From Myxococcota bacterium (GTDB lineage: Bacteria > Myxococcota_A > UBA796 > GCA-2862545), in NCBI GenBank assembly GCA_039208735.1, contig JBCCQY010000018.1, positions 19,702-83,701 on the forward strand: a stretch of DNA of 64,000 bases, written 5' to 3'. Shown one piece after another: positions 34,506 to 56,049 of the stretch. The notes under the pieces were generated by a model that was given only the letters and a program-made list of their open reading frames with translations, had not been told where the DNA came from and made no database searches. Position 1 is the stretch's first letter. The number at the start of each line of letters is the position of its first letter. Made by a program: the position numbers and the translations under genes.

Positions 34506-35576
34506 GTGAAGATGTCGCCCGAGGAAAAGGGCAAGCGGCTGAAGCAGTATGTGCGGTCTGAGCAGTTGGTGGACGACCTCGACTCCAGCGAGGCCGACCT
34601 CGCAGGGGCCTACCTCATCAAAGCCAACCTCTTCGGAGCCTGGTTGACCGAAGCCAATCTGCAGGGGGCTCAACTCGATTGGTCCAACCTCAATGGGGCC
34701 GACCTGACCAGAGCCAACCTCCAAGGAGCCAACCTCACCGGCGCCGACCTTCGCGATGCCTGCCTCAAAGAGGCCAACCTGCGGAAAGCCAATCTCCAAG
34801 CGGCTCAACTCGATGGGGCAAACCTCGAGGAGGCCGACCTCACAGGCGCCCAACTCCGTTCGGCAAGCCTGATAAACCTCCAGGTCATCCCACCGTCCAT
34901 CGTCGATGCCGAAGACCTCACGGGTGCGTCGCCAAACTGGCAGACGGTCGCGCGCATGTTGACCCTGCGAGACCCTGACCACCTGCTGTGCCGCACGGGC
35001 ATGCCGAGTGTCGCCGCGACCTACCTCGTCGACGCTCTGCGTTCGATCGATGCGGCTGACCTGTTCACGATGCTGCAATCGGTATTCTTGTCGTTTGGAA
35101 CGCCCGATCAGGCGTTTGCGGAACGGCTCCGCGCCGACCTGACGGAAAACGGGGTGAAAACATGGTTCTACCCGGAAGACGCTGAGCCCGGCCGGCGTCA
35201 TCATCGGCACATCCACAACAAGATCTGGGAGTACGACCGGTTGGTGCTCTGCTGCTCTCGGGATTCAATCCTGCGATCCGGGGTCCTCCACGAGGTGGAG
35301 GAAGTCTTGCAGCGAGAACAACAAGAAGGCAGCTCGAACCGACTTATCCCCATCTTCTTCGATGAGGACCTCTTCGAAACCGGGGCGTCGCCCCCTGAAT
35401 GGTGGCATCCAGAGCGGCGTCACATCTACCGCCAACTCCAAGGCCGAGTGTGTGCTCGGTTCACGACCGAACCCAACTCCCCCCAGTGGAACCAGGCCCT
35501 AAGGAAGCTTCTGAAGGTGCTTCACAAGCCGCCCCACGTCGAGGGTTCAACAGGGTCCGAATCGGACTTAGTCTAG
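34506..35576 (+). CDS. Pentapeptide-repeat protein with C-terminal TIR domain
   Basis: About 18 A(D/N)Lxx repeats; VFLSF..PDQAFAERLRADL..NGVKTWF, LCCSRDS, VLHEVE, LIPI. Confidence 0.88.
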   Translation: MKMSPEEKGKRLKQYVRSEQLVDDLDSSEADLAGAYLIKANLFGAWLTEANLQGAQLDWSNLNGADLTRANLQGANLTGADLRDACLKEANLRKANLQAAQLDGANLEEADLTGAQLRSASLINLQVIPPSIVDAEDLTGASPNWQTVARMLTLRDPDHLLCRTGMPSVAATYLVDALRSIDAADLFTMLQSVFLSFGTPDQAFAERLRADLTENGVKTWFYPEDAEPGRRHHRHIHNKIWEYDRLVLCCSRDSILRSGVLHEVEEVLQREQQEGSSNRLIPIFFDEDLFETGASPPEWWHPERRHIYRQLQGRVCARFTTEPNSPQWNQALRKLLKVLHKPPHVEGSTGSESDLV

Positions 35577-39195: not shown

Positions 39196-41469
39196 CTACG
39201 CAATGCCTCGGGCCAAGGCCACCACGGTCTGCCCCACCGCCAGTCCGCCGTCGCCAGGCGGCACCTCGCGATGCGTCAACACCGTGAAGCCGAGCATTCG
39301 CAGCCGGTGCACCAACGACTCCGTCAACACCCGATTCGCGAACACACCGCCCGACAACGCCACGGTGTCCAACTCGGGCCTCGTCGCTCGGAGGCGTTCC
39401 GCAAACTCGGCGAACGCACGAGACAGTCCGTGGTGGAACCGAGCGGCCACGGTACCCGCCGATGCGCCTTGCCGCACATCCTCGAGCAACTGCGGCCACA
39501 TCGAGGCGGGGTCTAGGACGCCGGATGCGCCAAACGCCAACGGAAACCCGTCGTCCAGCGGTGCATCGAGGGGCACGAGCGATTCAAGGGCCATGGCCGC
39601 TTGCCCCTCGTAGCTGATGCCTTCCGGGTACACGCCCACGGCGGCAGCGACCGCGTCGAACAAGCGTCCGCAGGACGAGGCCTTTGGTGAAGGGTGGGCC
39701 CGCAACGTGTCCAGGGGTCGGTCCACCAGTCGACCAAACACTGGCCCACGGCCGTACTCCGCCTCAAGCGAGGCCCAGTCCGCGGCGTCGAGCTGGGCAA
39801 AGAGATTCCGCCACGGCTGGCGCGCCGCCCGATCGCCACCGGGAAGCACCGTGGGTCGAAGGTGGCCCACCCGTTCGGCGAACGCGTAGTCCGCAACGAA
39901 TACCTCGCCCCCCCACCACTCCTCGTTCGCACCGTAGCCGATACCGTCGAGTGCGATGCCGATGACGGGTCCTGCATCGCGCGGTCGCCCCACTTCCGCC
40001 ATCACCGCGGCAATGTGCGCATGGTGGTGCTGGACCCGATGCACGGGCACGCGCCGTTCGGCCGCGATGTCCTCGCCAAACTGGCTCGCGCGATACTCGG
40101 GGTGCATGTCGACGACGACACATTGAGGCTCATGGTCGTAGACCTCGGTGAGCAGACGCAGCGCATGGTGCCAACTCTCGAGAGTGCGCAGGTCGTCAAG
40201 GTCGCCGAGGTGCTGGCTCGCGACGAGGTCGGCGCCCTTGGTCAGCGCGAAGACGGCCTTGAGGTCACCGCCCATGGCCAACACTTGGGTACCGCCGAAT
40301 CCCGGAGGCAGCCGCAGAGGAGCCGGGGCGTACCCACGCGCTCGACGGAGCACCCGGATGCTGCCGTCGATGAGGCGAACGACACTGTCATCGACACGGT
40401 TCGCAATGGGCCGGTCATGGACCAACCGCGCATCGGCAATCCCACTCAGTCGGGTGCGCGCATCTTCGTCGTCGGTGCATTGCGGCTCCTCGGTGAGGTT
40501 GCCGCTCGTGCAGACGATAGGCCCGTCGAACGCGGCGAGCAGAAGGTGATGCACCGGCGTCGTCGGCAACATGAAGCCCACATTGTCTGTGTCGGGTGCG
40601 ATCTCGTGAGCGAGGGAAGCCCGACCTCTCAACACGACGATGGGTCCCGCAGGGCTTTGGAGTGCGGCCACTTCCTCGGGGCCAACCTCCGCATACCGTT
40701 CGACCATTTCGAGGTCCCGCGCCATGCAAGCCAAGGGCTTATGGGGACGTCGCTTGCGGGTTCGCAGTCGTGCAACCGCCTCGGAGGACGTGGCGTCGCA
40801 GCACAGCTGGTAGCCACCGAGCCCTTTCACAGCAATGATCTCCCCCTTCCGCAACCGATGGGCCGCCTCTACGATGGGGTCAACCGCCGAGCGGGGCTCC
40901 AACCACAGCCGTGGGCCGCAGGTTGGACACGCCACGGGCTGAGCGTGGAACCTGCGGTCGACCTCATCGTGGTACTCAGCGTGACACCTTGCACACAACT
41001 CGAACGATGCCATCGTGGTCTGCGGGCGATCCCAGGGGACCCCGGTCACGATGCTGAAGCGAGGGCCGCAGTGGGTGCAGGTGGTGAAGCCGTAGCGAAA
41101 CCTCGGGTCGTTGGGTTCGAAAACCTCATCGAGGCAAGCCTGACAAACCACCGCATCCGGGCTGACCCCGGTGTTGGTGTCTCCCGCCTGACTCTTCACG
41201 ATCGAGAACCCGTGGTCCTCGAACGCCGCCTCAGTGGGGTCTCGCTCCACCTGGTCCACACGGGCGAGCGGTGGCAATTCGTCCATGAATTCCGTCACGA
41301 ATCGGTCCCGAAGCGCGGTCTCCCCATAGACCGCGACCAGGACACCATCCGCATCGTTGCGGACCCAGCCGCGAACCCCGAGTCGGCGCGCGACCCGGGC
41401 CACCGTGGGGCGAAATCCCACTCCTTGGACGATACCCACAAAGCGAATCAGCTCGCCCGGCGGCGTCAT
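39196..41469 (-). CDS. hypF: Hydrogenase maturation carbamoyltransferase HypF
   Basis: GIVQGVGFRP, CTHCGPRFS, RRFHAQP.ACP.CGP, KGLGG, QHHHAH, GDGGLAVGQ. Confidence 0.97.
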   Translation of the reverse strand: MTPPGELIRFVGIVQGVGFRPTVARVARRLGVRGWVRNDADGVLVAVYGETALRDRFVTEFMDELPPLARVDQVERDPTEAAFEDHGFSIVKSQAGDTNTGVSPDAVVCQACLDEVFEPNDPRFRYGFTTCTHCGPRFSIVTGVPWDRPQTTMASFELCARCHAEYHDEVDRRFHAQPVACPTCGPRLWLEPRSAVDPIVEAAHRLRKGEIIAVKGLGGYQLCCDATSSEAVARLRTRKRRPHKPLACMARDLEMVERYAEVGPEEVAALQSPAGPIVVLRGRASLAHEIAPDTDNVGFMLPTTPVHHLLLAAFDGPIVCTSGNLTEEPQCTDDEDARTRLSGIADARLVHDRPIANRVDDSVVRLIDGSIRVLRRARGYAPAPLRLPPGFGGTQVLAMGGDLKAVFALTKGADLVASQHLGDLDDLRTLESWHHALRLLTEVYDHEPQCVVVDMHPEYRASQFGEDIAAERRVPVHRVQHHHAHIAAVMAEVGRPRDAGPVIGIALDGIGYGANEEWWGGEVFVADYAFAERVGHLRPTVLPGGDRAARQPWRNLFAQLDAADWASLEAEYGRGPVFGRLVDRPLDTLRAHPSPKASSCGRLFDAVAAAVGVYPEGISYEGQAAMALESLVPLDAPLDDGFPLAFGASGVLDPASMWPQLLEDVRQGASAGTVAARFHHGLSRAFAEFAERLRATRPELDTVALSGGVFANRVLTESLVHRLRMLGFTVLTHREVPPGDGGLAVGQTVVALARGIA

Positions 41470-43136
41470 GAGCCTGGCGGGCGGGCTTCGAGCTGCTTGG
41501 ACTGGTGGAGCGACGACGCCAGGTGGCGTGACAACCGCACCCCGAAGCCCAACGTCCGTTGCACATCTTGATCCTGGAGCGCGCCCAGAAGGCCGAACAT
41601 GCCCACCGGCGTAGCAGGTTCCTTGAACGCCGCCGCCGTCGCTTCGTTGGCCGCCCGAAGAAAGCGGAGGGTGTCTTCTTTCACCGGCATCGACCGAACC
41701 ATGTCGAGGAGCCGCGACACATCTTCGGGGTCGATGCCATCGAGCTTGGTCAACAACGGCTTTGCGAACTTGGCGAGGTTCGGCGCAAGCTCGATCACCA
41801 TTTCGAGCGCCTCGAGGGTGTCGGGCTGGGTGGCCTGCTTCAAGAGGCGCAGTCCGGTCATGGTGGGCTTCTCGAGTTCCTCGATGGTGCCAATGCCGCT
41901 TTCTTCCGCGGCCGAATCGAGCATATCGAGGGCCCGTTCAACCTGGTTCACGGTCCGCTCGACCCTCGGCAGACGGTTCACCAACCGTTGCAGCGCTCCT
42001 GAAGTGTCCGGCGTGTCCGAGATCGAGGCAAGGATTGTGGAGACCTGCGCAAGCCCTCGGAGCGTCGGCGGGGTCGACAACGTGGTCAGGGCTTCAAGAC
42101 CGGCTTCCAACCGCTGGTCGACATCGGCCACGTCCTGCCGTCGGGCCCAGGTGCGCACGCCGTCCATGGTCTCTTCGAGAAGCTCGGGGCCTGCAGCAGC
42201 AAAGTACGCAGCGTATTCGAGCTGCGGGGCCAGGGCTGCAATCCGAGTCAGCGCCGAGAGCGTTTCTTCGTCCGACAACTCGAGCAGGACCTCGTAGAGT
42301 CGTGACTCGAGGCTCGCCTCCCCTTCCAGAGCCGCGCGCTGGCCCAACACCTCGGCCGTCGCGCGGAGCACGGGCCTCATGTGGGGTGCACTGCGCCCGA
42401 GTTCGCGTAGGGTCTCGATTTGCTCGGACCCCGTGAACAGCAGCAACAGGTCCGTGGCTTGATTCAGCCGATGGACGATGACATGAGGGTCGATTCCATG
42501 TTCGGAAGCTTTGGAACGCGCAAGCTCCATCGCTTCTTCAAGCAACTCCGGGCCCGCCGCCACAAAACCCGCCGCATATTCGAGTTGGGGGGCCAAGTTG
42601 GCGAGCCGTACCAACGCTTCTTGCGTCTCGGGATCCGAGAGTTCGAGAAACGCCTCGGTCATGCGACGCTGCAAGTCCTCATGACCCTCAAAGTCCCCGC
42701 GTTGCTGTAGCGCTGACGCAGCCGCTTCAGCCAACGGCAAGTAGTGCGGTGCGACCTCGGCGACGCGCTTGACCAGTTCCATTCGACCGCCGCTCGACAG
42801 TTCGATCGCCGTTTCCACCGCCCGGGTGAGCCGCCGCTGGACCTCGAACGCCCCAAGCCCAGAGTCCTCAGCCATCTTGCGAGCGGAGACAAGCGCTTCG
42901 TCGAGCAGCTCGGGGCCTGCTGCCGCAAGGTAGGCCGCGTACTCGAGTTGAGGAGCCAACGCCGCAATGCGCGCCAAGGCATCCAGACTCTCGGGATCCC
43001 CCAACTCCAGCATCAGCTTGGACAGCGAATCCGATGGCGTCGGCGTCGCGACGTGCCGCTGCTCCAACAATGCAGTGAGGCGTTCAAGCGCCGCTTCCAC
43101 CCGATCGAGACGTGCCGAAACATCCGAATCACTCAT
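41466..43136 (-). CDS. All-helical protein with three 121-aa repeats and a C-terminal DUF1641-like motif
   Basis: LAPQLEYAAxxxAAGPELL at aa 60, 181 and 302; C-terminal PVGMFGLLGALQDQDVQRTLGF; overlaps hypB and hypF. Confidence 0.8.
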   Translation of the reverse strand: MSDSDVSARLDRVEAALERLTALLEQRHVATPTPSDSLSKLMLELGDPESLDALARIAALAPQLEYAAYLAAAGPELLDEALVSARKMAEDSGLGAFEVQRRLTRAVETAIELSSGGRMELVKRVAEVAPHYLPLAEAAASALQQRGDFEGHEDLQRRMTEAFLELSDPETQEALVRLANLAPQLEYAAGFVAAGPELLEEAMELARSKASEHGIDPHVIVHRLNQATDLLLLFTGSEQIETLRELGRSAPHMRPVLRATAEVLGQRAALEGEASLESRLYEVLLELSDEETLSALTRIAALAPQLEYAAYFAAAGPELLEETMDGVRTWARRQDVADVDQRLEAGLEALTTLSTPPTLRGLAQVSTILASISDTPDTSGALQRLVNRLPRVERTVNQVERALDMLDSAAEESGIGTIEELEKPTMTGLRLLKQATQPDTLEALEMVIELAPNLAKFAKPLLTKLDGIDPEDVSRLLDMVRSMPVKEDTLRFLRAANEATAAAFKEPATPVGMFGLLGALQDQDVQRTLGFGVRLSRHLASSLHQSKQLEARPPGS

Positions 43137-43969
43137 GACGTTCTCCCGGGCGCACGGTCACGGATCCATTGGTACCAGGCATCCATTCCTTCACCGGTAC
43201 GGGCGGAAACCTGCAGCACAGGCACGGTGGGGTTCACGCTCGCAATGGCATCCAGCGTGCGCGGGACGTCGAAGTCGAGATGCGGGAGCAAATCGACCTT
43301 TGTGAGCAACACGAGGTCGGCCCGGCTGAACATATGGGGGTACTTCTCGGGCTTGTCCTCGCCCTCGGTGACCGAGTACAGCACCACTTTGGCCGCTTCA
43401 CCAAGGTCGAACAACGCGGGGCACACCAGGTTGCCGACATTCTCGATGAATAGCGTTCCGCCAGGCTCCGGCCGCAGGCGTTGAATCCCCTGCCAGACCA
43501 TCTCGGCTTCGAGGTGACAGCCCTTGCCCGTGTTCACCTGCACGACGGGCGCCCCGGTCGCCCGAACGCGTTCGGCGTCGAGCGAGGTCTCTTGGTCTCC
43601 CTCGAGCACGCCGGTAGAACCATCGAATTCCGTCAGGGTGCGCACAAGCAGCGTCGTCTTGCCGGAGCCCGGGGAACTCATGAGGTTCAACGCGGTGACC
43701 TCACGCGCATCGAGCCACGTCCGATTCCGTTCGGCGATGCGTTCGTTGGTGGCCAACACCCGTTGTTCGATTTCCACGAGTTCGTGGGGACCATCGTGGT
43801 GGTGGTGATGATGATCATCGTGGTGATGATGGTCGTGGTCGTGGTCGTGGTGATGGTGGTGACCCGGTTTCGGGTCGAGGACCGCAGCGACGGCAGCCCG
43901 CTCTCCTGTGGTCAGGTCGTGCAAGGAGGCGTCGCTCTCGCCGCCACTACACCCGCAGGTCATACACAT
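43133..43969 (-). CDS. hypB: Hydrogenase nickel-insertion GTPase HypB
   Basis: MCMTCGC, His-rich tract, SSPGSGKTT, GCHL, ENVGNLVCP, KYPHMF. Confidence 0.97.
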   Translation of the reverse strand: MCMTCGCSGGESDASLHDLTTGERAAVAAVLDPKPGHHHHHDHDHDHHHHDDHHHHHHDGPHELVEIEQRVLATNERIAERNRTWLDAREVTALNLMSSPGSGKTTLLVRTLTEFDGSTGVLEGDQETSLDAERVRATGAPVVQVNTGKGCHLEAEMVWQGIQRLRPEPGGTLFIENVGNLVCPALFDLGEAAKVVLYSVTEGEDKPEKYPHMFSRADLVLLTKVDLLPHLDFDVPRTLDAIASVNPTVPVLQVSARTGEGMDAWYQWIRDRAPGRTS

Positions 43970-44298
43970 CAGAGCTCCATCGACTGAATCAAGAGTTCTT
44001 CGCCCGCTACGATGCGCAGGGGCGCTCGGCGTTCGCACTGGCAAAGCGCCACAAGGTGTTGGAGCTGCATCTGCTCCCCGCAACGTTCGCATTCCCCGCG
44101 CCCTTCGACCTCGTGCACCACGAGTTCGGCCCCTTCAAGAGCCGTGCCTTCGGTACACATTCCGAAGCAAAACTCAATGGCGCCAACCTCGATGCCAGCC
44201 AGAGCGCCGATACGGAGATGAATGCGGCGCACGGGTCGTCCTGCCGCACGTTCCGACACGATGGACACAATGTTTCGGGTGATCGACAGTTCGTGCAT
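43969..44298 (-). CDS. hypA: Hydrogenase nickel chaperone HypA
   Basis: MHELSI, CERC, CQC, GEELLI. Confidence 0.95.
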   Translation of the reverse strand: MHELSITRNIVSIVSERAAGRPVRRIHLRIGALAGIEVGAIEFCFGMCTEGTALEGAELVVHEVEGRGECERCGEQMQLQHLVALCQCERRAPLRIVAGEELLIQSMEL

Positions 44299-45377
44299 TA
44301 GCAAATCCTCGGCAGCTGCGTGCCGACCAACATGTCGAGGATGCGCTCTCCCCCGAAGCTCGTCCGAACGGTGACCACGCCCGGCGGCTGCGGACGGCAC
44401 CGCCCCACCAGCGCCGCATGCTCACCCAACGGATGTCGACGCATGACCTCAAGGGCCCGTTCCGCCTGTGCGGCAGGAACCGCCACGGCGACCTTGCCTT
44501 CATTCGCCAGATGAACGGGATCTAGACCCAACAGCTCACAGAAGCCGTGTACTTCTGGTCGCACCGGCAGCGCCGCCTCGTCGACTTGGATGCCCACCTC
44601 ACTTCCCAGAGCGAGCTCGTTGAGCACCGCGGCCAGACCGCCGCGGGTGACATCCCGCATGGCGTGAACCTCAACCTCGTCGAGCAAGGCGCGAATGAGG
44701 TCGTAGAGCGGAGCACAGTCGCTCGGAATGTCGGATTCGAGGTTCAACTCCCCTCGGGCCACGAGGATCGCAGCCCCGTGGTCGCCCAAAAAGCCATTGA
44801 CCAGCACCACATCGTCAGACTGCAATCGGCTCGACGACACCTCGACGTCAGACGGGATCACGCCGATGCCCGAAGTGTTGATGAACAGCTGGTCGGCGGC
44901 CCCGCGTTGCACAACCTTGGTATCGCCCGTCGCAATGTGAACCCCCGCCTCCCGCGCGGCCTCTCCCATGCTGGTGAGCACCTGGCGAAGGGTGTCGATG
45001 GGCAGGCCCTCCTCGATGACAAGCCCCACCGAGAGGTACTTTGGCTGGGCGCCGCCCACTGCCAGGTCGTTGACCGTTCCATTCACGGCGAGCTTGCCGA
45101 TGTCTCCGCCAGGAAAGAACAGCGGGGAGACGACGTAGCTGTCGGTCGTGAAGGCGAGCCGGTCGCCTTGTGCGGACAAATCGGCCAGCGAGAACCGTGC
45201 TTGGTCCTCATCGACTTCAAGGTGTTCACTTCGAAAAGCGCGAATCACCAAATCGTCGATCAGAGCGCGCATCGCCTTGCCGCCGCCGCCGTGTGCCATC
45301 GTCACGACGTCTTCCCGCACCCGACCCGAGCGCCGCCGGAAGCGCTCGATGCGTTGAAACAGCGGATGCTCACTCAT
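44298..45377 (-). CDS. hypE: Hydrogenase maturation dehydratase HypE
   Basis: MAHGGGG, FTTDSYVV, NGTVNDLA, ANEGK, C-terminal PRIC. Confidence 0.97.
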   Translation of the reverse strand: MSEHPLFQRIERFRRRSGRVREDVVTMAHGGGGKAMRALIDDLVIRAFRSEHLEVDEDQARFSLADLSAQGDRLAFTTDSYVVSPLFFPGGDIGKLAVNGTVNDLAVGGAQPKYLSVGLVIEEGLPIDTLRQVLTSMGEAAREAGVHIATGDTKVVQRGAADQLFINTSGIGVIPSDVEVSSSRLQSDDVVLVNGFLGDHGAAILVARGELNLESDIPSDCAPLYDLIRALLDEVEVHAMRDVTRGGLAAVLNELALGSEVGIQVDEAALPVRPEVHGFCELLGLDPVHLANEGKVAVAVPAAQAERALEVMRRHPLGEHAALVGRCRPQPPGVVTVRTSFGGERILDMLVGTQLPRIC

Positions 45378-46500
45378 GAGGCCACCTCGACATGCCGGAC
45401 GGTGGAAAGGCGACCATATTGGTAGTACGCCGCACAGGAACCTTCGGACGAGACCATGCAAGCGCCGATGGGCGTTTCCGGTGTGCAAGCGGTACCAAAC
45501 ACCTTGCACTCCCAAGGCTTGATGCTGCCTTTGAGCACCTCACCGCACTGGCAGGCTTTCGGATCGGCGACCGACAACCCGGGCGTCCCAAACCGGCGTT
45601 CGGCATCGAAGCGTTGGTACCGTTCGGTCAGCTGCAGGCCGCTGTGGTCGATGGAACCGAGTCCACGCCACTCAAAGAAGGGCCGCAACTCGAAGACTTG
45701 CACCAGGGCATCTAGCGCCTGGGGATTGCCCCCGTCGCGTACCAGCCGTCGATATTGATTCTCGATTTCGGCGCGGCCGTCGAGCAACTGCGCCAACACC
45801 ATCTGGATCGACTGGAGAACGTCGAGCGGCTCGAAGCCTGCCACGACGAGCGGCCCTGGTAGCGCTCCGCGATGAAGCGGTATGGCGCGGTTCCAATGAC
45901 CATCGAGACGTGGCCCGGTCCGATGAACCCGTCGAGGCGGTCATCGGGAGAATCCAAGATGGCCTTGATCGTAGGCACAATCGTGATGTGGTTCGAAAAG
46001 ACGTAGAAGTTTTCAATGCCCTCGGCCTCGGCTTGGAGCACCGTGAGGGCGGTGGACGGTGCGGTCGTCTCGAAACCAATGCCAAAGAACACCACGGGCC
46101 GGTCCGGATTGGCCCGCGCAAGCGCCAATGCATCCATCGGGGAGTAGACGGTGCGTACATCCGCGCCATTGGCCTTCGCCTGGAGCAAGCTGTGGGTCGA
46201 TCCGGGCACCCGGACGGCATCGCCGAAGGTTGCGAAGATGACGTCCGGCTGGGTGGCGATCGCCACCGCGTCATCCACTCGGCCCACGGGCAACACGCAC
46301 ACCGGGCACCCGGGTCCGTGGATCAGTTCGATCGCGTCGGGCAGGATTTCTTCAAGGCCAAACTTGAAAATTGCATGGGTGTGTCCTCCACACACCTCCA
46401 TGATGCGGATGGGTCGATCCAAGGCCTTGAGCTGCTGGCGAATGACACCGAGCAGGTGGGCCGCGGCTTCGGGATCGCGAAACTCGTCGACGTACTTCAC
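45374..46500 (-). pseudogene. hypD: hypD with a single frameshift (true lesion or assembly error)
   Basis: N-part has MEVCGGHTH, GPGCPVC and PGHVS; C-part in another frame has VVAGFEP, CGEVL and GACMVSSEGSC; one base missing near 45854-45857. Confidence 0.9.
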
Positions 46501-47150
46501 GGCGCCTCCTCATGGGCCAACAGGGTGTGAACAAGGTCCCAGAGCACATGGTAGGCAACCAAGTGCCCCTCCTGAACGCGGTGCACGCTTGGCGACGGCA
46601 CTCGAACCACGTGCTGAACGTGCTCGCTCGTGGCCATCCGTCCGCCGTCGCCCCCGGTGAACCCCATCGTCACGAGTCCCTGGCTCGAGGCCACGCGAAA
46701 CGCCTCAAGAAGGTTCTCGGAGTTGCCGCTCGTCGAAAGGCCAAGCAGGGCATCCCCTTTGCGACCGTGGGCGAGGAGTTGGCGGGCGAACACCTGGTCA
46801 AACCCGACATCATTGCCCACCGCCGTGATCATCGGCATGTCGGCGAGCTGCAAAGCAGGCAGGGCCCGGCGCCCCACCGTGATGGGATGCATGAATTCCA
46901 CTGCGACGTGGGCGGCATCGCAGGAAGACCCACCATTGCCCATCGTCAGCAGGCGTCCGCCAGCGGCAAACACCTGCGAAAGGGCGCGCGCGGCGGCGAC
47001 CAAGGCCGGCCCCCCGACGTCCAGCGTTTGCCGTTTCGCTTCGATCGACGCTTCGAACTTGGTCTGAATCGAGGTCAGGAGATGCTCGTCGGTAAGCGCC
47101 GCGCGATGCCCCTTCAGGTCGGGGTACAGCTGGGACAATGGGTCGGTCAC
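46497..47150 (-). CDS. gmhA: SIS-domain phosphoheptose-isomerase-like protein
   Basis: GNGGSSCDAAH, TAVGND, STSGNSEN, VQEGH. Confidence 0.85.
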   Translation of the reverse strand: MTDPLSQLYPDLKGHRAALTDEHLLTSIQTKFEASIEAKRQTLDVGGPALVAAARALSQVFAAGGRLLTMGNGGSSCDAAHVAVEFMHPITVGRRALPALQLADMPMITAVGNDVGFDQVFARQLLAHGRKGDALLGLSTSGNSENLLEAFRVASSQGLVTMGFTGGDGGRMATSEHVQHVVRVPSPSVHRVQEGHLVAYHVLWDLVHTLLAHEEAP

Positions 47151-47434
47151 GACGGCAACTCCGGCGTTTGCCGCATGGCCTCGTGGGCCTCGGCCACCTC
47201 GCCAAGCTCGTGCATGAGTTCCAACGTACGCTGCGCTTCCTCGGGATCAATGCGGCTCATCGCAAAGCCCACATGCACGAGCACCCAGTCACCGACGCAG
47301 CTGTCGATCGGATGGTCCTCGTTGATCACGCAGGCCAGGTTGACCGTACGCCGAACGCCGCTGACATCCACGACGCCGAGTCGCTTTTCACGATCGGCAA
47401 TCTCGACGATTTCACCGGGAATTCCGAGGCACAT
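47147..47434 (-). CDS. hypC: Hydrogenase chaperone HypC
   Basis: MCLGIPG, VGDWVLVHVGFA; AAGGAG RBS. Confidence 0.97.
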   Translation of the reverse strand: MCLGIPGEIVEIADREKRLGVVDVSGVRRTVNLACVINEDHPIDSCVGDWVLVHVGFAMSRIDPEEAQRTLELMHELGEVAEAHEAMRQTPELPS

Positions 47435-47996
47435 GGCCACTCCTTGAGTTGAGGCGCTGCCGAAGCTGCCATTTGACGACGCCCATCATGGCTGCCGCAT
47501 CGGGAACGACGCGGGCGATGGGTACGCTGACGCGATGCGCGATCAACAACTCGAGTCCTGTCGCAGGCTCGCCGAGCAACGGCCATTGAGCGCGGGGCAC
47601 CGTCGTGAGCCGTTCGAGCTTCGCCACCGCTGCGTCATCGTGGAGATTGCCGAGCGCCCGTCGACCCTCCACCTCATCCACGATCACAACCTCGCCTCGC
47701 AACAGCAGGGTTCGGGCCGCATCCACATCATCGAGCATGGAGTAGGAAGCAAAGGTGCACGCCCGTCCATCCGTACGAGCGAGTTCCACGGCGGGTCCGC
47801 AGGTGTGGCAAAACGCGGCCGGTTCGCCAAAGCGACGGGCCTCTGGATTGCCGATTTCTTGAGTGCATTCCGGGCACATCGCAATCTTGGGCCGGATCGC
47901 ATCGGGGCCGCATGTCGTGCACCGCGTGAACGGGTAGCGGTAGCGACGGGCGAAGGGGTCCCGAATCTCTTCGGCACAAGCCTCACACAGCGTCAC
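47412..47996 (-). CDS. Mini-HypF: two HypF zinc fingers plus a degenerate YrdC-like fragment
   Basis: CEAC..RRYRYPF..CTTCGP, MCPEC..RRF..CHTCGP; GTGA overlap with the NHL gene; no acylphosphatase or Kae1 domain. Confidence 0.7.
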   Translation of the reverse strand: MTLCEACAEEIRDPFARRYRYPFTRCTTCGPDAIRPKIAMCPECTQEIGNPEARRFGEPAAFCHTCGPAVELARTDGRACTFASYSMLDDVDAARTLLLRGEVVIVDEVEGRRALGNLHDDAAVAKLERLTTVPRAQWPLLGEPATGLELLIAHRVSVPIARVVPDAAAMMGVVKWQLRQRLNSRSGHVPRNSR

Positions 47997-49180
47997 GAGC
48001 CCTCCTCGGCGAGCGACCACACAAGGACGCGGTGATTGCCTGTGTCTGCGACGACCATGGTTTGGCCCACAATCTGGAGCCCATAAGGCCAACACAAGCT
48101 GTCTCGCTCGGCTTCCTTCCAGCGGTTGTCGCCTTTCGCACCGAAATGCGGCTGACCACAAAGCGCTTGAGCGGGAATTCCATCACCAAGGGGAGCGCGC
48201 CACCCCACCAGACGCGAATTCGCCGTGTCCCCGGCGACCAGCCACCCAGACCCCGCCGCGATGGCGTAGGGCATGTTGAGGCACGCTGCGTCCGGCCAAT
48301 AGTTCGATCGGTTGTGGTCCACTGAAGAAAAGTCAGGTTGACCCAACACAGTGGTGGCGGGCTGATTCGTTTCGTCGGGGAGTCCTTCCCAAAGGAGCAC
48401 TCGGTTGTTGCCCGCATCCGTCACGACCAGACGGCCATCGAGCACCGCCAGGTCGTGGGGCCAACGGAGGCTCGATGAACTCGGCGCTTGCCCCCCATTG
48501 TCACTGCGTGATTGCAAATCGGGCTGACCGAGAACCAAGTCAGCCGGCTGACCCGATTGCGTGGGCAGCGTGCGCCAAATGAGCACACGGCGGTTGCCTG
48601 CATCGGCCACATACAGTCGGCCATCGTGCACGAGGACCTGAAACGGCCAGTGCAGCGTGTCAGCGCCCGCCTCGGCCTTCCCACGATTGGGTTCTTGCCC
48701 CGAGAAGTCCGCTTGCCCCAGGACAAGGTCGGCAGGCACCCCGGATTCAGCCGGGCGTTCGAACCACACCAACACTCGATTGTTCCAGCTGTCCGCGACC
48801 ACGAGGCCACCTTCACCGAACGGACCGAGGCCACACGGAACATTCAACGTCGTCGCGGAGGGCTCACCAAGGGCGTTGCGGCCCTCGCGATCGAAGGCGG
48901 GTTGACCCATGACAAAGTCGGCGGGCGTGCCGTCCTCGGTGGGGAGGCGGGCCCAGCCAAGCAGCCGATGGTGCCCGGTGTCAGCCACCCACAGCGGACC
49001 CTCCGGGCCAAACAGGTGGGCTCCCCGTGGGCCAAACAATGCACTCGCATCGGGTGCCACCGGACCCACCAGCGGATCGGCGCCTCCAAGGAGCAACCGC
49101 GGACCGGAGGGAACGAGCAGCGCAGGAGCGGGTGGACCCGAGGGCGGACCCTCGCCGAGCGGAACGTGAAGCGCGTTCAT
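47993..49180 (-). CDS. NHL-repeat beta-propeller protein (hydrogenase accessory)
   Basis: Repeated L.VADxGNxRVL.W...PADxVLGQPDF. Confidence 0.9.
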   Translation of the reverse strand: MNALHVPLGEGPPSGPPAPALLVPSGPRLLLGGADPLVGPVAPDASALFGPRGAHLFGPEGPLWVADTGHHRLLGWARLPTEDGTPADFVMGQPAFDREGRNALGEPSATTLNVPCGLGPFGEGGLVVADSWNNRVLVWFERPAESGVPADLVLGQADFSGQEPNRGKAEAGADTLHWPFQVLVHDGRLYVADAGNRRVLIWRTLPTQSGQPADLVLGQPDLQSRSDNGGQAPSSSSLRWPHDLAVLDGRLVVTDAGNNRVLLWEGLPDETNQPATTVLGQPDFSSVDHNRSNYWPDAACLNMPYAIAAGSGWLVAGDTANSRLVGWRAPLGDGIPAQALCGQPHFGAKGDNRWKEAERDSLCWPYGLQIVGQTMVVADTGNHRVLVWSLAEEGS

Positions 49181-50016
49181 GTGGTCACCCGAACCTGGAC
49201 GCGTTCGCCCGAGACTTGTACTGGAAAGGCCATCAGACCGATCTCAGGGGCGGTAAGGCACTCCCCGGTGGACAGCAAGAAACGAAAGCCGTGGTAGCTG
49301 CAGGTGAGAACCCCATCCGCGATCTCCCCCATTTCAAGGGGCATGCCGAGATGGGCACATGCATTGGGATAGGCTTTGACCTCGCCGTCGACCCGGGTGA
49401 GTAAGACCGAGGCGCGCTCGAGTTCGACGGCGACCACACCGCCATCGGGAACCTCGGAGGCGGCGATGGCATCTTCCCAGGGCACCGCAAACGGCGACCC
49501 TGCGACGTTCGCGGATTGGGCGGGGGCAACGCCTCGCACCACGGTGACCCGTTCTACCTCGGCCACTTGTTCGACCAGTGCCCGCTCGATGCCCAGCTTC
49601 ACCGTGGCATCCGAAAAGGCGCAGCCGTTGCACGACCCCAATAGACGGATCTGGGCTTCGTCAGGCTCGACGAAGGCGACGAGTTCAACGCCCCCCTGAT
49701 GCCCCTCGAGCATGGGCTGCACCGTCTTCAGCGCGGTACGGATGCGGTCTTCGACCGGAGGCTCCGGCGCCGCAAGCAAGCCATGGTACGTCAGCACCGA
49801 GTACACCCAGGGGTCCTCCACTGCCGCGCGCAGCGACGCAAGCCCCTCGGAGGTTTGCTTCACCTCGCGAATGATGCGGCGAAACGCCTCGGCCTGGATC
49901 GCCTCCAGCGTGGTGCGCACCGCCTGAACCGTCGCGCGCTGGGTCTCATCCCAGGTGGCCACAATGTCGTCGAGTCGCTCGAGATCGGCGACCAAGCCTT
50001 GCAGGTCGTCACTCAT
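49177..50016 (-). CDS. NifU-like plus Rieske [2Fe-2S] domain protein
   Basis: HQGGVELV..LGSCNGC; NACAHLG...CSYHG. Confidence 0.9.
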   Translation of the reverse strand: MSDDLQGLVADLERLDDIVATWDETQRATVQAVRTTLEAIQAEAFRRIIREVKQTSEGLASLRAAVEDPWVYSVLTYHGLLAAPEPPVEDRIRTALKTVQPMLEGHQGGVELVAFVEPDEAQIRLLGSCNGCAFSDATVKLGIERALVEQVAEVERVTVVRGVAPAQSANVAGSPFAVPWEDAIAASEVPDGGVVAVELERASVLLTRVDGEVKAYPNACAHLGMPLEMGEIADGVLTCSYHGFRFLLSTGECLTAPEIGLMAFPVQVSGERVQVRVTT

Positions 50017-50972
50017 GAACCGACCAACTCTTGCCGCAGCCGGCCCGCAATTTCCGTCACCGTGGCCGCCCGATCCGCCAGATGGTGTGCCTCGAACAGC
50101 GCACCAGCCTCCTCCAACATCTCCGCGGCCATTTTGAGATGGTTTGGATTGCCCTGCTCTGGATGTTCCAGATCGTCGGGCAAGTTCATCAGCGCATTGG
50201 CCTTGTTGGACAAGGTGTTGGCGTACTCGACGGGCATCGTCCTTGCGGTTCGCACCCGTAATGCCTCGTCGTACGCCTTCACCGCCTCACTGAGGTGCTC
50301 GAAGGGATGGCTGCTCCGGGTGGCCTGCAGGGCGTTTCCGAGGTTGCTCTGCAGCATCGCGTACTCGACCGGGTCCTCCTCGAGCGTGACGCAACGCAGC
50401 GCTTCCTTGAAGGACTGCACGGCTAACGCTTCACGAACCCCGTCTTCCGCGGAAATCGCGGTCGACAGGTAGGCCGTGGCGAGGTTGTTGTGGAGGATGG
50501 CGTACTCGCGGGGAAAACCCGAGGCGTCAAAGAACCGCAACGCGCGGTGGTAAGCCTGGATCGCAAGCGGCAAAGGCGCCCGCTGCGCCCCCGCGAGCGC
50601 CTGCAGGACGAGGCCGTAGTTCATCTCGACCTCCGCCGCCTCCTCCTGGTCTCCGTCCGCATGCAGGATGGGCAACGACGTCTCGAACGCTTCGCGCGCG
50701 TCGAGCAAATGGGTCAAGCCCGCGCCAGGCATGCGCCGCAACGCACTCCCTTTGCCAGAGATCGCCCGGGCATGAGCCAGGGGCGTGTCATGGGCCAACC
50801 GAGCCGCCTGATCGTACAGAAAGATCGCATCGGCCAACGCCTGTGGCTCCTTCGGCTGGCGCTGCAGGTCCATGGCCATCTCGACCAGCGCCTCGGCCTG
50901 GCGAAGGGGCGCGGAATCCGTCGCTTCGATGCGCTTCACAGCGGCGTCAATGTGGGCACTCGGTGCGTTCAT
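50013..50972 (-). CDS. TPR-like protein (hydrogenase accessory)
   Basis: EYAILHNNLATAY, EYAMLQSNLGNALQ, EYANTLSNKANAL. Confidence 0.85.
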   Translation of the reverse strand: MNAPSAHIDAAVKRIEATDSAPLRQAEALVEMAMDLQRQPKEPQALADAIFLYDQAARLAHDTPLAHARAISGKGSALRRMPGAGLTHLLDAREAFETSLPILHADGDQEEAAEVEMNYGLVLQALAGAQRAPLPLAIQAYHRALRFFDASGFPREYAILHNNLATAYLSTAISAEDGVREALAVQSFKEALRCVTLEEDPVEYAMLQSNLGNALQATRSSHPFEHLSEAVKAYDEALRVRTARTMPVEYANTLSNKANALMNLPDDLEHPEQGNPNHLKMAAEMLEEAGALFEAHHLADRAATVTEIAGRLRQELVGS

Positions 50973-51760
50973 GCCATCTCCTGGCGCGTCAGCGAGAGGG
51001 CACCGAGCGTGCTCTCCCAGGTTGCGGTACAGACCATGTCGTCCCAGTCGCTCCAGCCCTGGTTGCGGAGGAACTCGGCCGCATCGATCACGCGGTCACC
51101 TTTCGCATTCCGGATTTTGACGAGGAGGCCCCCGTTGACCTGCTCCACCGGCATGAGGCACAGCGCACCATCCAACACAAAGGGAACCACACCCTCGCGC
51201 CGGTCGAATACGGCGTCGTAGAGCGTCCGAGGGACTTGGATCGACCCTCGCCGAATGGAAATGTCCCACGCCTCAACCGCCGCGTGGCGCGCCACCGCGT
51301 GGTTGGCAATGCGTTCGAGAACCCGGTCGAACACCGTGTCGATGGCCTTCTCCACCGGAGGACTCACTTCCAGGCCGAGACCCGTATCGGACGCTTCGAT
51401 GAGAAAAACGGTCACACTGTCTGGAAAGTCCTCGCCGTAGATCTTTTGGCCTGCGGCGAGGGCGTGATCCCAGCGAAAGTCGTGCAAGTTGAGGGAAGGT
51501 GCGTGATCATTGGCGAGTTCAGATCCGGGCACTTCAAACACCGCTCCGGGTTCGGATCCGCTCACCGAGGCATCGATGAGGATGACGGCATCGCTGCCCC
51601 GCGCCGCGAACATCACGTCGATGCCCCCGGTGCCGCAGTCGAGTGCCCGCACCCCCGGCACCGGGTGCCGGTCGAGGCGTTCGCGCAACCGCCGAGCAAC
51701 GTGCACCCCCGCTGCGTCGTCTCGCCGATTCGCATTGCCACAGCCGATGATCGTAAGCAC
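50969..51760 (-). CDS. hupW: Hydrogenase maturation endopeptidase with about 100-aa C-terminal extra domain
   Basis: IIGCGN..RRDDAAGV, ILIDA, NLHDFRWDHAL; GGAGG RBS. Confidence 0.85.
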   Translation of the reverse strand: MLTIIGCGNANRRDDAAGVHVARRLRERLDRHPVPGVRALDCGTGGIDVMFAARGSDAVILIDASVSGSEPGAVFEVPGSELANDHAPSLNLHDFRWDHALAAGQKIYGEDFPDSVTVFLIEASDTGLGLEVSPPVEKAIDTVFDRVLERIANHAVARHAAVEAWDISIRRGSIQVPRTLYDAVFDRREGVVPFVLDGALCLMPVEQVNGGLLVKIRNAKGDRVIDAAEFLRNQGWSDWDDMVCTATWESTLGALSLTRQEMA

Positions 51761-51773
51761 CTTCCCTCCTCGT

Positions 51774-53378
51774 CTAAGCCGTCCGGAAGCGGGCGAGTTC
51801 CTCACCGGTCTTGGCATCGTGCGCGTGCACCGTGCAGACCAGGCACGAGTCGAACGAACGCGCCACATGCCCCACTTCGACGGGGTCGTGCTTGTTTGCG
51901 ATGGGCGTACCGATCAGCGCTTCTTCGATGGGGCCTCGGTTCGCCGCATCATCGCGGGGTCCCACGTTCCAAGTGGTGGGCGAGATGATCTGGTAGTTCT
52001 CGATCTTCCCGTCCTTGATCTGGATCCAGTGGGCGAGCGCACCGCGAGCCGCCTCCGTGGCCCCCCAGCCTTCCCCATCACGCGGCCGGGGCTTGATGTA
52101 GAAGGGATCGTTGAGGGCGAAGGCCCGCAAGCAGCGCTCCGCTTCGCGGTAGACCTTGACCGCCTCGTGCATCCGCGCCAGCTGACGCAAGTGCAGGCTC
52201 GCCCCGCCCAGTGACTTGAATGCATCGAGAATGAAGGGATCGGAGTGCTGCCATGCATGCCCGTGGCTTCCCCCTGCGACAAGCTGGCGCGACAACGGGC
52301 CCGCCTCGCACCGACCGAGTTCCAAGTCCTTGACCGAGGTGGCCCACGAGTACTGTCCATTGAAGTCGTGGGGGTTCTTGGCCACCGCCACCGTGCGGCG
52401 TTGGAAGGGGTGAACGTCGGCATTGCCTTCGTCGTACCAAGCGTGGGTCGTATTTTCGCGCACACGGCCCTGATCCATCACGATGTGCGTGTCGGTCGTC
52501 CCGTCGTAGATCCCGCTCTTCATGATAACGGCATCGTTGCGGTCGTCGATGGTGGGCTTTTGGTAACGATCTTCGTGGGGCAGGTACCCCCACGTCACGT
52601 AGCGGCCGACCCCCGCGCCGTACTTGTCGAGGCCGTAGTCCAGACCGGCTTTCCAATACAGGGCGAGGTCGGAATTGGCGTGCTCGGGCTTTTCGTCCAT
52701 CCACGCCATGAAGTCGTCGTAGCTACGGATTTCTTCGTAGCGCTCAAGCGAGCAACCGAGCCACGTCGACTCGAGCCAGTTCCGACGGAAGTACTCGAGG
52801 ATCGCCCAGGCACGCGTCACATCAGAGAGCGTGGGGGAGCACATGACGCCGCCAGGCACCATGTACGAGGAGTGCGGCCATTGGCCACCGAACAGGGCGT
52901 AGATCTCGACCGGCTTGCCCGAGATCGTGACGCCAGTTTGGTAGCTCGTTCCCGTGTACGCACTGAAACGCTTGGCGACTTCTTCGTAGTACGAACTCTG
53001 CGAATACTTGGGGTTGGCCATGTCAATGGCGTACAGACCGTAAAAGTAGCGAGGCATGCTCTGCAGACTCTCGACGATCTGTCCCAGATTGCGGGCGATG
53101 ATGGCGTTGCGAGGGACTTCCGCACCGTAGGCGGTGTCGAGCGCCCAGGCCGCGCAGGTCAAGTGGCTTGCGCCGCAGATCCCGCAAGCTCGGGGGGTCA
53201 CCACCAGGCCGGCCTGGGGGTCCTTTCCGCGCAGGATGATCTCGAAGCCGCGGAACATCTCCGCCTGAGTCCAGGCATTGACGACGGTGCCGTTTTCGAT
53301 CTCGACGCGTACATCGAGGTCTCCTTCGACACGGCCGACGGGAGAGATGTCCAGCACCTCGGTGTTGAGCTCGTCCAT
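51774..53378 (-). CDS. hupL: Group 2a [NiFe]-hydrogenase large subunit
   Basis: SPVGRVEGDLD, L1 PRACGICGASH, L2 SFDSCLVCTVH, cleavable tail AHDAKTGEELARFRTA. Confidence 0.95.
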   Translation of the reverse strand: MDELNTEVLDISPVGRVEGDLDVRVEIENGTVVNAWTQAEMFRGFEIILRGKDPQAGLVVTPRACGICGASHLTCAAWALDTAYGAEVPRNAIIARNLGQIVESLQSMPRYFYGLYAIDMANPKYSQSSYYEEVAKRFSAYTGTSYQTGVTISGKPVEIYALFGGQWPHSSYMVPGGVMCSPTLSDVTRAWAILEYFRRNWLESTWLGCSLERYEEIRSYDDFMAWMDEKPEHANSDLALYWKAGLDYGLDKYGAGVGRYVTWGYLPHEDRYQKPTIDDRNDAVIMKSGIYDGTTDTHIVMDQGRVRENTTHAWYDEGNADVHPFQRRTVAVAKNPHDFNGQYSWATSVKDLELGRCEAGPLSRQLVAGGSHGHAWQHSDPFILDAFKSLGGASLHLRQLARMHEAVKVYREAERCLRAFALNDPFYIKPRPRDGEGWGATEAARGALAHWIQIKDGKIENYQIISPTTWNVGPRDDAANRGPIEEALIGTPIANKHDPVEVGHVARSFDSCLVCTVHAHDAKTGEELARFRTA

Positions 53379-53408: not shown

Positions 53409-54371
53409 TCAGACGACGAAGATGTCGTCTTTGGACCACTTCGGGGCCGAGGCCTTTCCGGCGGCGACCATCGTGAGGTAGGTGCGCTTGCTCATGCCCG
53501 GAGGCACTTCATTGGGCATCCCGAGCGTGGTCGGGGTGGCAAACACGGTTCCCGGGGCCAAATCATGATGGGGGAACTCGGGTTCTGTACAGCCGATGCA
53601 CGGATGGCCTGCGCGGGTCTTCGAAGACTGGCGGTTCCACAGAATGCGGTTGCAGGGCGACCGAGTGAACGGTCCCCGACAGCCGAGATCGTAGAACAGG
53701 CAGCCCGTCCGTTGACCGAACTCCGTCGCACTGACCTTGTAGGCGAAGTGCATGTTTCGCGTACATCCGGTCTGGGTGAAGCTCGTGAAGAAGGTCGCGG
53801 GCCGCTGGAGATCATCCAAGGCCAGATCACCGGCGCGTCCCGTCGCAATCGCCACCAAGATCTGGGTGATCCAGTCCGGATGGGCGGGGCAGCCGGGGAT
53901 GTTGATGACGGGAAGCCCCGCCTTCGACCGAAAGTCCGGACCAAGAAAGCCGCCGTGCGCACGCTTGAGGAACTGCAGTCCCGTCGAGTCCGACGGGTTG
54001 GGTGCGGTGGCGGGAATGCCTCCCCACGTCGCGCAGTCCCCGATGGCGACGACGAACTTGGCCGCATGCGCGAGGTCCCAGACCCAGTCCTTCATCGCAC
54101 GACCCGCAAAGCGGTTCCAGTTGCCGGTGCCCTCTGGGGCTTGGATGACCGAGCCCTCGAACACGAAGATGTCCATGTCGAGGTCGCCCGACACACACTT
54201 CTGACAGAGCTCCGTGACTTGGGGTCCCAGTTCCACCCCGAGCGACGGATGCCAAAGAATGTTGAGGCCAAAGTCGAGCACGAGGTCGACGACGCTCGGC
54301 TCCTCGGCGTTGAGGAAGGACATGGTGTTGCCAGAACAGGCACCACCTTGAAGCCAAAGGACGTTTGCCAC
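53409..54371 (-). CDS. hupS: Group 2a [NiFe]-hydrogenase small subunit (no Tat signal)
   Basis: LWLQGGACSGNTMS (Asn variant), GDCA, PGCP, TQTGC (Gln variant), LGCRGP, PCIGCTEP; AGGAGG RBS. Confidence 0.95.
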   Translation of the reverse strand: MANVLWLQGGACSGNTMSFLNAEEPSVVDLVLDFGLNILWHPSLGVELGPQVTELCQKCVSGDLDMDIFVFEGSVIQAPEGTGNWNRFAGRAMKDWVWDLAHAAKFVVAIGDCATWGGIPATAPNPSDSTGLQFLKRAHGGFLGPDFRSKAGLPVINIPGCPAHPDWITQILVAIATGRAGDLALDDLQRPATFFTSFTQTGCTRNMHFAYKVSATEFGQRTGCLFYDLGCRGPFTRSPCNRILWNRQSSKTRAGHPCIGCTEPEFPHHDLAPGTVFATPTTLGMPNEVPPGMSKRTYLTMVAAGKASAPKWSKDDIFVV

Positions 54372-54527: not shown

Positions 54528-55415
54528 TTAGACAATCACGATTTGCTCGGGCTGTAGCCCAATACGAGTGCCGTACCAACCGCCAACCCGTCGACTTTCA
54601 AACAACCCATCGACATCGGACAGTCCCTTGCGGGCGAGGAAGGTTTTCGCTTTGCCACGCATCCAGCCCAAGCGCTGAGGTGGACTGCTGGGGTTCCCCC
54701 CAAGCTCAAGCCACCTGGCATGGGCCTCTTCCCTCGAGATCCAAGCGTCTTCGTGGGCATAGTCGTTGACCCGGGCCTCGGCGTAGGGCAGCAACACACG
54801 AACGATCTCGCGCGACAATTCCACACGGAAGGTTCCGAGTTCAATGGCCCCCGTCAGCGTTTCGGCATCCAACTTCAACAGGGTGTCGACATGCAAAATG
54901 GACGAGATGCCACTGCCCGAGGTTGCCTGGACGCGCTGGGGCAGGTGTAGACGCAGGGGACGGCCCTCAATCACGAGCACGACGCCATCGTTGAGGGGTT
55001 CTCCTGTGTGCGTACGCCATTGATGAAACCCGGCATTGCCCAGCATTTCAGCGAGGCTCTGCTTGACGAGGATCTGACCCGACTGCAGATCGACCGCGTA
55101 GGGCTGCGGTGCATCGCCATTGACCAGTTCCACCGCCGCTGCGGCCCGAAGCCGAAGCACACGGTTGGCCTTGCGAGAGACGGTGAGCGAACGCCAACCC
55201 GGTCGGAGCCAGTCACCCGCACCCAGCGTGTCGCCTTCGCGGCTTAGGGCTCGCCAACCCCAACGGCCGCCGAGCCAGCGGATCTCAAGCCAGCGCAGGG
55301 GCACCTCTTCGGCATGGAGCAGGATGTCGCACGACCAATGGCGTCCAATCAACGTCGAAACGGCAAGTGGACGTTCGCTCCAGTGAGATCCGTAGGTGAT
55401 TTTGACCCTACCCAC
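54528..55415 (-). CDS. FHA-like domain protein with possible C-terminal winged helix
   Basis: LIGRHWSCDI.L...VP..WLEIRW..W.WR; C-terminal WISREE..RL..LFE. Confidence 0.55.
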   Translation of the reverse strand: MGRVKITYGSHWSERPLAVSTLIGRHWSCDILLHAEEVPLRWLEIRWLGGRWGWRALSREGDTLGAGDWLRPGWRSLTVSRKANRVLRLRAAAAVELVNGDAPQPYAVDLQSGQILVKQSLAEMLGNAGFHQWRTHTGEPLNDGVVLVIEGRPLRLHLPQRVQATSGSGISSILHVDTLLKLDAETLTGAIELGTFRVELSREIVRVLLPYAEARVNDYAHEDAWISREEAHARWLELGGNPSSPPQRLGWMRGKAKTFLARKGLSDVDGLFESRRVGGWYGTRIGLQPEQIVIV

Positions 55416-56007: not shown

Positions 56008-56049
56008 TCGCCGATTACAGCACACGCCTCCGGGCGACGCTGAAACGGA

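Follow-up and report, generated by a model that had tools for sequence, protein, structure and literature searches.

HucM of the Mycobacterium smegmatis hydrogenase Huc, ForE and YjlC/Ncp have been described as members of one DUF1641/HMP family of quinone tubes (PMC13524794, PMC13433803). The partners assigned to the family are formate dehydrogenase, SQR, [NiFe] hydrogenase and NDH-II, with SQR proposed to be ancestral, and the published tree has the hydrogenase-linked members in one group from Firmicutes and Actinobacteria only (PMC13433803). In Huc, residues 20–79 of HucM scaffold four HucS2L2 lobes, and Lys212, Tyr229 and Tyr301 of HucS hold menaquinone (PMC10017518), while HucM residues 63–78 and HucS residues 298–311 line the quinone pocket (PMC13433803). 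Here we describe a repeat-expanded member of this family, 556 residues long and hereafter called the scaffold, which is encoded in a group 2a hydrogenase cluster from a Myxococcota bacterium. The cluster lies on a 64,000-nucleotide stretch of DNA, referred to as the window (GenBank assembly GCA_039208735.1, contig JBCCQY010000018.1, positions 19,702 to 83,701 of the forward strand). The scaffold is probably a helical protein with three copies of the enzyme-docking segment that forms a tetrameric tube and joins the hydrogenase HupSL to membrane quinone.

Compared to HucM (PDB 7UUS chain Q; PMC10017518), the scaffold has a homologous head and stalk, and its repeated core appears homologous to the HucM docking segment. 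The partner in both cases is a group 2a hydrogenase without a twin-arginine translocation (Tat) signal, and the quinone residues are kept in HupS. However, HucM has 188 residues and one docking segment, whereas the scaffold has three such segments, and the HucM gene precedes hucS, whereas the scaffold gene sits at the hyp end of its cluster. The scaffold is also closer to SQR-type HMPs than to HucM, and its host is Gram-negative.

In the Bacillus subtilis Ndh filament (PDB 9SNK, 9PXK; PMC13433803, PMC13524794), the Ncp unit has 140 residues and a rise of about 90 Å, the heads of four chains interlock to make an opening, and Phe108 inserts into the bilayer. YjlC/Ncp has the same head as the scaffold, with the Phe of a GxFG motif, and Phe108 corresponds to Phe514. 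The several enzyme tiers along a hydrophobic conduit are the architecture that we propose for the scaffold; however, Ncp tiers are non-covalent, head-to-tail stacks of variable length, whereas those of the scaffold would lie in one polypeptide of fixed length, with a hydrogenase as the partner. ForE/YjgD (ForCE; PDB 8RQZ) shares the DUF1641 head, with a weak profile match, but is a single unit that partners a formate dehydrogenase. The uncharacterised SQR-associated HMPs of Myxococcota, which belong to the class proposed as ancestral (PMC13433803), have the same N-terminal helix and head, and their units of ≈67 residues vary in number too. The 121-residue unit of the scaffold consists of halves of about 68 and 53 residues, each of which matches this SQR-type unit (the SQR-unit profile had been excised with the core hidden Markov model (HMM), and is hence biased to match). 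The scaffold differs from these proteins in its core motif, in the doubled unit with a shorter second half and in having a hydrogenase rather than an SQR as its neighbour.

A repeated core in a DUF1641/HMP protein

A preliminary description of the window, made from the letters alone, had picked out an apparently all-helical open reading frame (ORF) at 41466–43136 and had likened it to DUF1641 proteins. This ORF reads along the minus strand; a contig identical over its span was recovered from run X1. An AlphaFold2 monomer model contained helices only (pLDDT 67, pTM 0.41), and a second monomer model (pTM 0.36) was also helical. Pfam DUF1641 (PF07849) matched residues 505–538 with 41.9 bits, compared to a curated cut-off of 21, which bears out the assignment of the C-terminus. 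The three motif copies that had been noticed were also confirmed: they start at residues 44, 165 and 286, in steps of exactly 121 residues, and the best ungapped 45-residue self-comparison gave 32 identities, compared to at most 15 in 60 shuffles. The units are identical at 31–35 of their first 55 residues and at 4–17 of the remaining 66. Since the similarity is concentrated in the first 55 residues and fades beyond them, unit 3 is a core without the full spacer. The protein showed no transmembrane-level hydrophobicity (maximum 19-residue Kyte-Doolittle value of 0.97).

Foldseek searches with the monomer models returned nothing at an E-value of 0.001 or better (a YjlC–Ndh model came third in one search, with E = 0.63), and the VIA fold search with the same models gave best Z-scores of 6.5 and 7.8 to generic hairpins and was uninformative. 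Features from the ESM Atlas for residues 150–290 pointed to DUF1641 clusters at 0.84–0.86, which we treat as a lead only.

A search of the PDB with the single scaffold sequence found no family member. With a profile (A1) made from an alignment of 44 full-length scaffold homologues, the top four of six PDB matches were HucM (E = 7.8e-6), YjlC (E = 7.8e-6), Ncp (E = 1.8e-5) and ForE (E = 0.009), and in the A1 alignment Phe514 of the scaffold falls on the membrane-inserting Phe108 of Ncp. By these profile matches the scaffold is a member of the DUF1641/HMP family. The contrast that the preliminary description had drawn between HucM and the DUF1641 proteins does not hold, as the same profile matches HucM, YjlC, Ncp and ForE, which form one family.

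Single-unit members of the repeat subfamily, of ≈200 residues, could be aligned over their full length to the HucM-type proteins (hhalign 98%), with the core on the N-terminal segment. The HucM-type alignment, which was anchored on three plasmid clusters, in turn matched the 60-residue HucM cage chain of PDB 7UTD through the same N-terminal segment. Compared directly with this segment, the core matched at 78% when all rows were used and at 91% for the Bacillota/Thermus type; the score was 27, compared to a maximum of 14 in column shuffles (n = 40) and 16 for a stalk control. Because the alignment places the core on the N-terminal, HucS2L2-docking segment of HucM-type proteins, the repeated element is judged homologous to the docking and quinone-pocket segment of HucM; as far as the alignments tell, this homology is real, but distant.

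On sequence grounds, the scaffold is not a HucM orthologue. HucM-type proteins have 156–214 residues and a single docking unit, compared to 556 residues and three cores, and the SQR-type HMM outscored the HucM-type HMM on both the whole scaffold (109 vs. 33 bits) and the head (55 vs. 31 bits), scores that are independent of the biased SQR-unit profile. The earlier label “non-HucM” is thus apt as regards orthology, but HucM is itself a DUF1641/HMP protein and the top match in the PDB.

The number of units was counted in 336 stored proteins, of which 103 were kept that had a Met start, a head and one or more strong cores (redundancy remains in this set, and some entries may be fragments). One core was present in 23 proteins, two in 30, three in 44, four in 5 and five in 1; one four-unit member (P0009) comes, according to its database label, from a cultured host. 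The spacing between cores (n = 137) was exactly 121 residues in 86 cases and 111–122 residues in 136. Over the 44 homologues, conservation was highest in the cores (0.67–0.69), followed by the head (0.59), the spacers (0.48–0.50) and the stalk (0.29–0.31). The three cores of the scaffold are nearly equal in this respect (0.69, 0.69 and 0.67), which suggests that each keeps the same job, and the P-x-L-E-Y-A and G-P-x-L residues are invariant and present in each core copy. In 106 of 132 cases, the core nearest to a given one occupied the same position in another protein. “Length-extended”, as the protein had been called, is therefore correct but undersells it, since the repeated piece appears to be homologous to an enzyme-docking segment and is no featureless spacer.

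The basic idea of DUF1641/HMP quinone tubes, HucM included, is already published. New here are the homology of the repeated core to the HucM docking segment, as assigned from the alignments, together with its rank as the most conserved part of the protein, and the variation in unit number from one to five with near-fixed spacing. In the literature, with the supplements of the papers covered in part, we found neither repeat-expanded nor myxobacterial hydrogenase-linked HMPs described.

Linkage to group 2a hydrogenase and origin of the scaffold

HupS of the window matched mycobacterial HucS with E = 1.6e-158 (next family, 4e-38), and its alignment to HucS retains the equivalents of the three residues that hold menaquinone (Table 1). 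The gene starts with GTG, and an in-frame stop lies 12 codons upstream, so HupS has no Tat leader. No cytochrome b family was matched among the 30 + 30 window ORFs scanned with Pfam. The preliminary description was right on both of these points.

Nine repeat-type loci, the window included, were examined for their neighbours. The hyp genes adjoin the scaffold gene on the same contig in seven of them (the window, G431, G490, G247, L037, G705 and G694), although the scaffold gene of G247 is inverted relative to the hyp genes. The remaining two loci are at contig ends: in G439 the hydrogenase cluster stops at a contig end past hypB and the scaffold gene starts another contig, and in G430 the contig is shorter than 5 kb, with only a hupE-like fragment upstream. 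The closest scaffold homologues are labelled Myxococcota, and the runs that matched best come from marine and microbial-mat metagenomes; the metagenome scan for the repeat type counted at least one locus.

Within the window's class (182 genomes), a full repeat protein was found in six genomes and HupL at 76–100% identity in five, all among those six; neither HupL nor HupS was found in G430, an assembly of 1,850 contigs. In a second class, the repeat profile matched in 2 of 401 genomes and HupS was present at 83% identity in 2 of 321, and these were the same two genomes. Taking the two classes together, the scaffold was found in 7/7 genomes with close HupS/L, and the enzyme in 7/8 genomes with the scaffold. 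Since these genomes are related to one another, and many of them incomplete, the counts show association rather than independent events. G210, which has no HupS match, contains only a relic of the head (L109, G210:C12), corresponding to the last 96 residues and sharing 85% identity with a two-unit member; hyp genes are absent up to 20 kb away. The trait is rare, with one full-length match in a sample of 400 other genomes of the phylum. The repeat protein was present in 0 of 107 genomes of another class, in a search without a positive control and without a HupS search. That the repeat subfamily tracks group 2a hydrogenase in Myxococcota is also new. The proposal that the scaffold links a soluble hydrogenase to membrane quinone appears well supported by family, gene context, co-occurrence and the quinone residues of HupS.

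The short HMPs of the phylum have a different neighbour. Pfam Pyr_redox_2 identified an adjoining 395-residue flavoprotein at 28 of 36 sampled loci and BLAST at five more (53–64% identity), giving 33 of 36, and the flavoprotein has a conserved P-x-K-C-x-G-A-P motif. We take it to be SQR-like, on our understanding of this motif and the published association of HMPs with SQR. These short HMPs have the N-terminal helix in common with the scaffold and up to roughly five of the ≈67-residue units. Five short-type loci (L013, L036, L042, L043 and L045) encode proteins with three to five such units, four of them beside an SQR-like gene; unit expansion appears to be family-wide in Myxococcota HMPs. In five others (L093, L094, L101, L103 and L106), HMP heads are fused to a C-terminal domain that ends in P-K-P-x-G-C-V/I, presumably TusE/DsrC-like, and adjoin divergent SQR-like genes.

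In a quick tree of the head region (105 columns, with 35 of 72 inner branches unresolved), 31 repeat-type rows, with two SQR-neighbour rows among them, were separate from the HucM-type rows. A HupS tree of 18 rows joined the six myxobacterial enzymes to six from Alphaproteobacteria and Bacteroidota (SH-aLRT 95), while the three HucM-linked enzymes lay apart. The six alphaproteobacterial and Bacteroidota clusters are without a scaffold and have nearly the same gene order as the window. The closeness of the scaffold to SQR-associated HMPs and the grouping of its HupS with scaffold-less enzymes are further new points, and they suggest a second recruitment, in Gram-negative bacteria. From these comparisons, we lean towards an origin of the scaffold that is separate from that of HucM, in an HMP of the SQR type from myxobacteria. 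Most simply, a group 2a cluster without a scaffold would have taken over an SQR-type HMP that was already present in a myxobacterial host, although the scaffold may instead have been lost in the alphaproteobacterial and Bacteroidota lineages. In the scaffold-less clusters (L074, L075, L078, L079, L091 and L092), HupS retains the quinone-site tyrosines, and the alphaproteobacterial ones have several small hypothetical genes after hupL. The C-terminal helix of HupS also differs in charge between the alphaproteobacterial enzymes without a scaffold and the enzymes that have one, a difference that was not used, as it is confounded by kinship.

The window's genome has a second HMP gene (C198; L035:7998-8705, G000:C198), which encodes 236 residues and sits between the genes for an inward-rectifier potassium channel and a trypsin-PDZ protease, with no oxidoreductase neighbour. 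We considered the possibility that this was the real partner of the hydrogenase. This was weakened by its relatives, which were present in 9 of 16 fetched loci, in kin genomes without close HupL or group 2a enzyme, several of them beside potassium-channel or protease genes.

Proposed mechanism and competing explanations

In the mechanism that we propose, four scaffold chains would interlock at their heads, which would contact the inner membrane through Phe514, and the chains would wind into a tube with an apolar lumen. HupSL would dock on the conserved cores through the C-terminal helix of HupS, and quinone would diffuse between the membrane and the HupS site, standing in for a cytochrome b anchor. 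By analogy with Huc, ForCE and Ndh-YjlC/Ncp, we consider it likely that tetramer, tube, membrane contact, quinone transport and HupS binding hold jointly, and the scaffold most likely works like HucM.

If each core docks an enzyme, one tetramer would hold three enzyme tiers, as in the Ndh-Ncp filament, but within one chain. Occupation of more than one core is a possibility that we take seriously without expecting it. The rise per unit, scaled from that of Ncp, is estimated at ≈75–80 Å, which is no proof for or against there being enough space for lobes to stack. More speculatively, the subfamily might form a covalent “filament” of fixed length, with one to five tiers of four HupS2L2 lobes each; the scaffold would then hold 12 lobes and 24 active sites around one quinone lumen, with a small membrane footprint, and the Huc architecture would have been re-invented independently from an SQR-type tube.

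Several observations weigh against a tetrameric quinone tube that serves HupSL. The head has a positive net charge in 36 of the 44 homologues, but in the scaffold itself Gly and Gln stand in place of Ncp Arg112 and Lys115. Against the mycobacterial HucM rows alone, the core scored only 8%, and a repeat-only profile did not retrieve HucM from the PDB. The monomer models have low pTM, and only 5 of 23 scaffold helices were more amphipathic than shuffles (p ≤ 0.05). The co-occurring genomes are related, and the cluster may just travel as a unit. The second HMP gene is present elsewhere in the same genome. Finally, a search with four HMMs gave no HMP gene in the six group 2a clusters from Alphaproteobacteria and Bacteroidota (three controls were positive), so that enzymes of this class seem to manage with no scaffold encoded next to them.

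A credible, though somewhat doubtful, alternative is a hydrogenase scaffold with a single enzyme-binding core, probably the one nearest to the membrane, in which the extra units lengthen the tube or add storage for lipid or quinone. The unit number varies freely from one to five, which makes the extra units dispensable, the estimated rise may be tight for stacked HucS2L2 lobes, and the resemblance of cores at the same position allows for position-specific roles. However, the cores are equally conserved while the spacers drift, and invariant motifs in all copies would be unexpected of a pure spacer, although packing within the tube could conserve them too.

It is improbable that the scaffold works for some other enzyme that reduces quinone, be it SQR or a different flavoprotein, and is only carried along with the hydrogenase genes. 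The higher score with the SQR-type HMM and the flavoprotein genes beside the short HMPs would fit such a role, as would the inverted gene in G247, but a search of the window's genome, which is 93% complete, gave no SQR-like gene, and none was identified beside the repeat-type loci with scanned neighbours. Moreover, the core has a G-P-E motif, as in hydrogenase-linked HMPs, in place of the SQR-type motif, and the presence of the scaffold tracks the group 2a genes.

The repeats might also replace oligomerisation, with the units of one chain packed next to each other in a pseudo-oligomeric cage. Three- and four-unit forms, near the four-fold symmetry of the known tubes, are common (44 and 5 of 103), but forms with one, two or five units also occur, and there is only one head per chain, whereas the Ncp opening requires four interlocked heads, which makes this arrangement very improbable. 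A role in maturation or assembly for the Hyp proteins, outside the working enzyme, would suit the location of the gene after hypB at the hyp end of the cluster, away from hupSL, but can be largely set aside, given that the scaffold has no Cys and no metal motif, that hypA/hypB are likewise next to the HucM-type genes in Thermus and Sulfobacillus, and that all characterised family members are enzyme–membrane scaffolds.

The hydrogenase cluster and wider significance

The features of the scaffold and of the hydrogenase cluster are listed in Table 1. The genes are in the order hupS, hupL, protease, TPR-like, NifU-Rieske, NHL, hypF relic, hypC, SIS, hypD, hypE, hypA, hypB, scaffold and hypF.

Table 1. 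Features of the scaffold gene and the surrounding hydrogenase cluster, in window coordinates.
Feature	Position	Strand	Remark
Repeat-expanded DUF1641/HMP scaffold gene, 556 residues (P0001)	41466..43136	-	ORF, Pfam, profile search
N-terminal helix, residues 3-27, RLDRVE-type	43056..43130	-	common to SQR-associated myxobacterial HMPs
Unit 1, 121 residues, residues 38-158	42663..43025	-	core residues 44-88 = 42873-43007
Unit 2, 121 residues, residues 159-279	42300..42662	-	core residues 165-209 = 42510-42644
Unit 3, core only, residues 280-333	42138..42299	-	like the other cores, judged homologous to HucM-type N-terminal docking segment
Variable helical stalk, residues 334-509	41610..42137	-	least conserved part
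HMP head, residues 484-550	41487..41687	-	Pfam DUF1641 inside at 41523-41624; holds Phe514
hupS, group 2a small subunit, no Tat leader	53409..54371	-	keeps HucS Lys212, Tyr229, Tyr301 equivalents
hupL, large subunit	51774..53378	-	Pfam, genome search
Maturation protease, TPR-like, NifU-Rieske and NHL-repeat proteins	47993..51868	-	usual group 2a accessory block; same order in other clusters
Truncated hypF relic, zinc fingers only	47412..47996	-	ancestral hypF position; gap-free coverage by X1 and X3 contigs
hypC, SIS-domain gene, hypD, hypE, hypA, hypB	43133..47440	-	hypD frameshift near 45855
Full-length hypF	39196..41469	-	3' of scaffold gene in window genome only

ATGA overlaps join the scaffold gene to hypB and to hypF, as the preliminary description had noted. 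The translational coupling that it read from them would follow from the overlaps, but the downstream hypF is found in this genome alone, and its coupling to the scaffold gene is a strain-specific rearrangement. The hypF relic is 36–50% identical to hypF of kin and 30% identical to the full-length copy, which suggests that the latter came from elsewhere.

The hypD gene is split in the window, and we considered the possibility that the cluster was decaying through this frameshift. However, contigs of runs X1, X2 and X3 each have one extra base near 45855 (X1 may be the source sample; X2 is from a different study). The break is thus probably an assembly error, and decay was rejected.

Upstream of hupS, a 295-residue ORF without a Pfam match (54528–55415), possibly a regulator, is found at the same position in G439 and G431 with 62–71% identity. 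A HupE/UreJ-like membrane protein (Pfam E = 0.015, below the cut-off) is encoded at 55423–56025, and relatives of it directly precede the scaffold gene in G705 and G694. Elsewhere in the window are a pentapeptide-repeat protein with a TIR_2 domain (34506–35576), a possible defence gene, and a transposase (29183–30268) that we take to be IS630-like.

Long-range quinone transport through protein tubes was described between 2023 and 2026 and is presented as a Gram-positive strategy. A hydrogenase-linked HMP subfamily in the Gram-negative Myxococcota, which was probably recruited separately, takes this strategy beyond the Gram-positives and suggests that high-affinity H2 oxidation was wired convergently. 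With members of one to five units in nature, it can be tested how far quinone can be carried, whether the number of tiers scales with the enzyme load per membrane footprint, and what determines partner specificity. The scaffold also offers a modular part for building assemblies of soluble hydrogenase and quinone. If the covalent tiers are real, they would be a genetically tunable counterpart, in a Gram-negative cell, of the self-stacking Ndh-Ncp filament.

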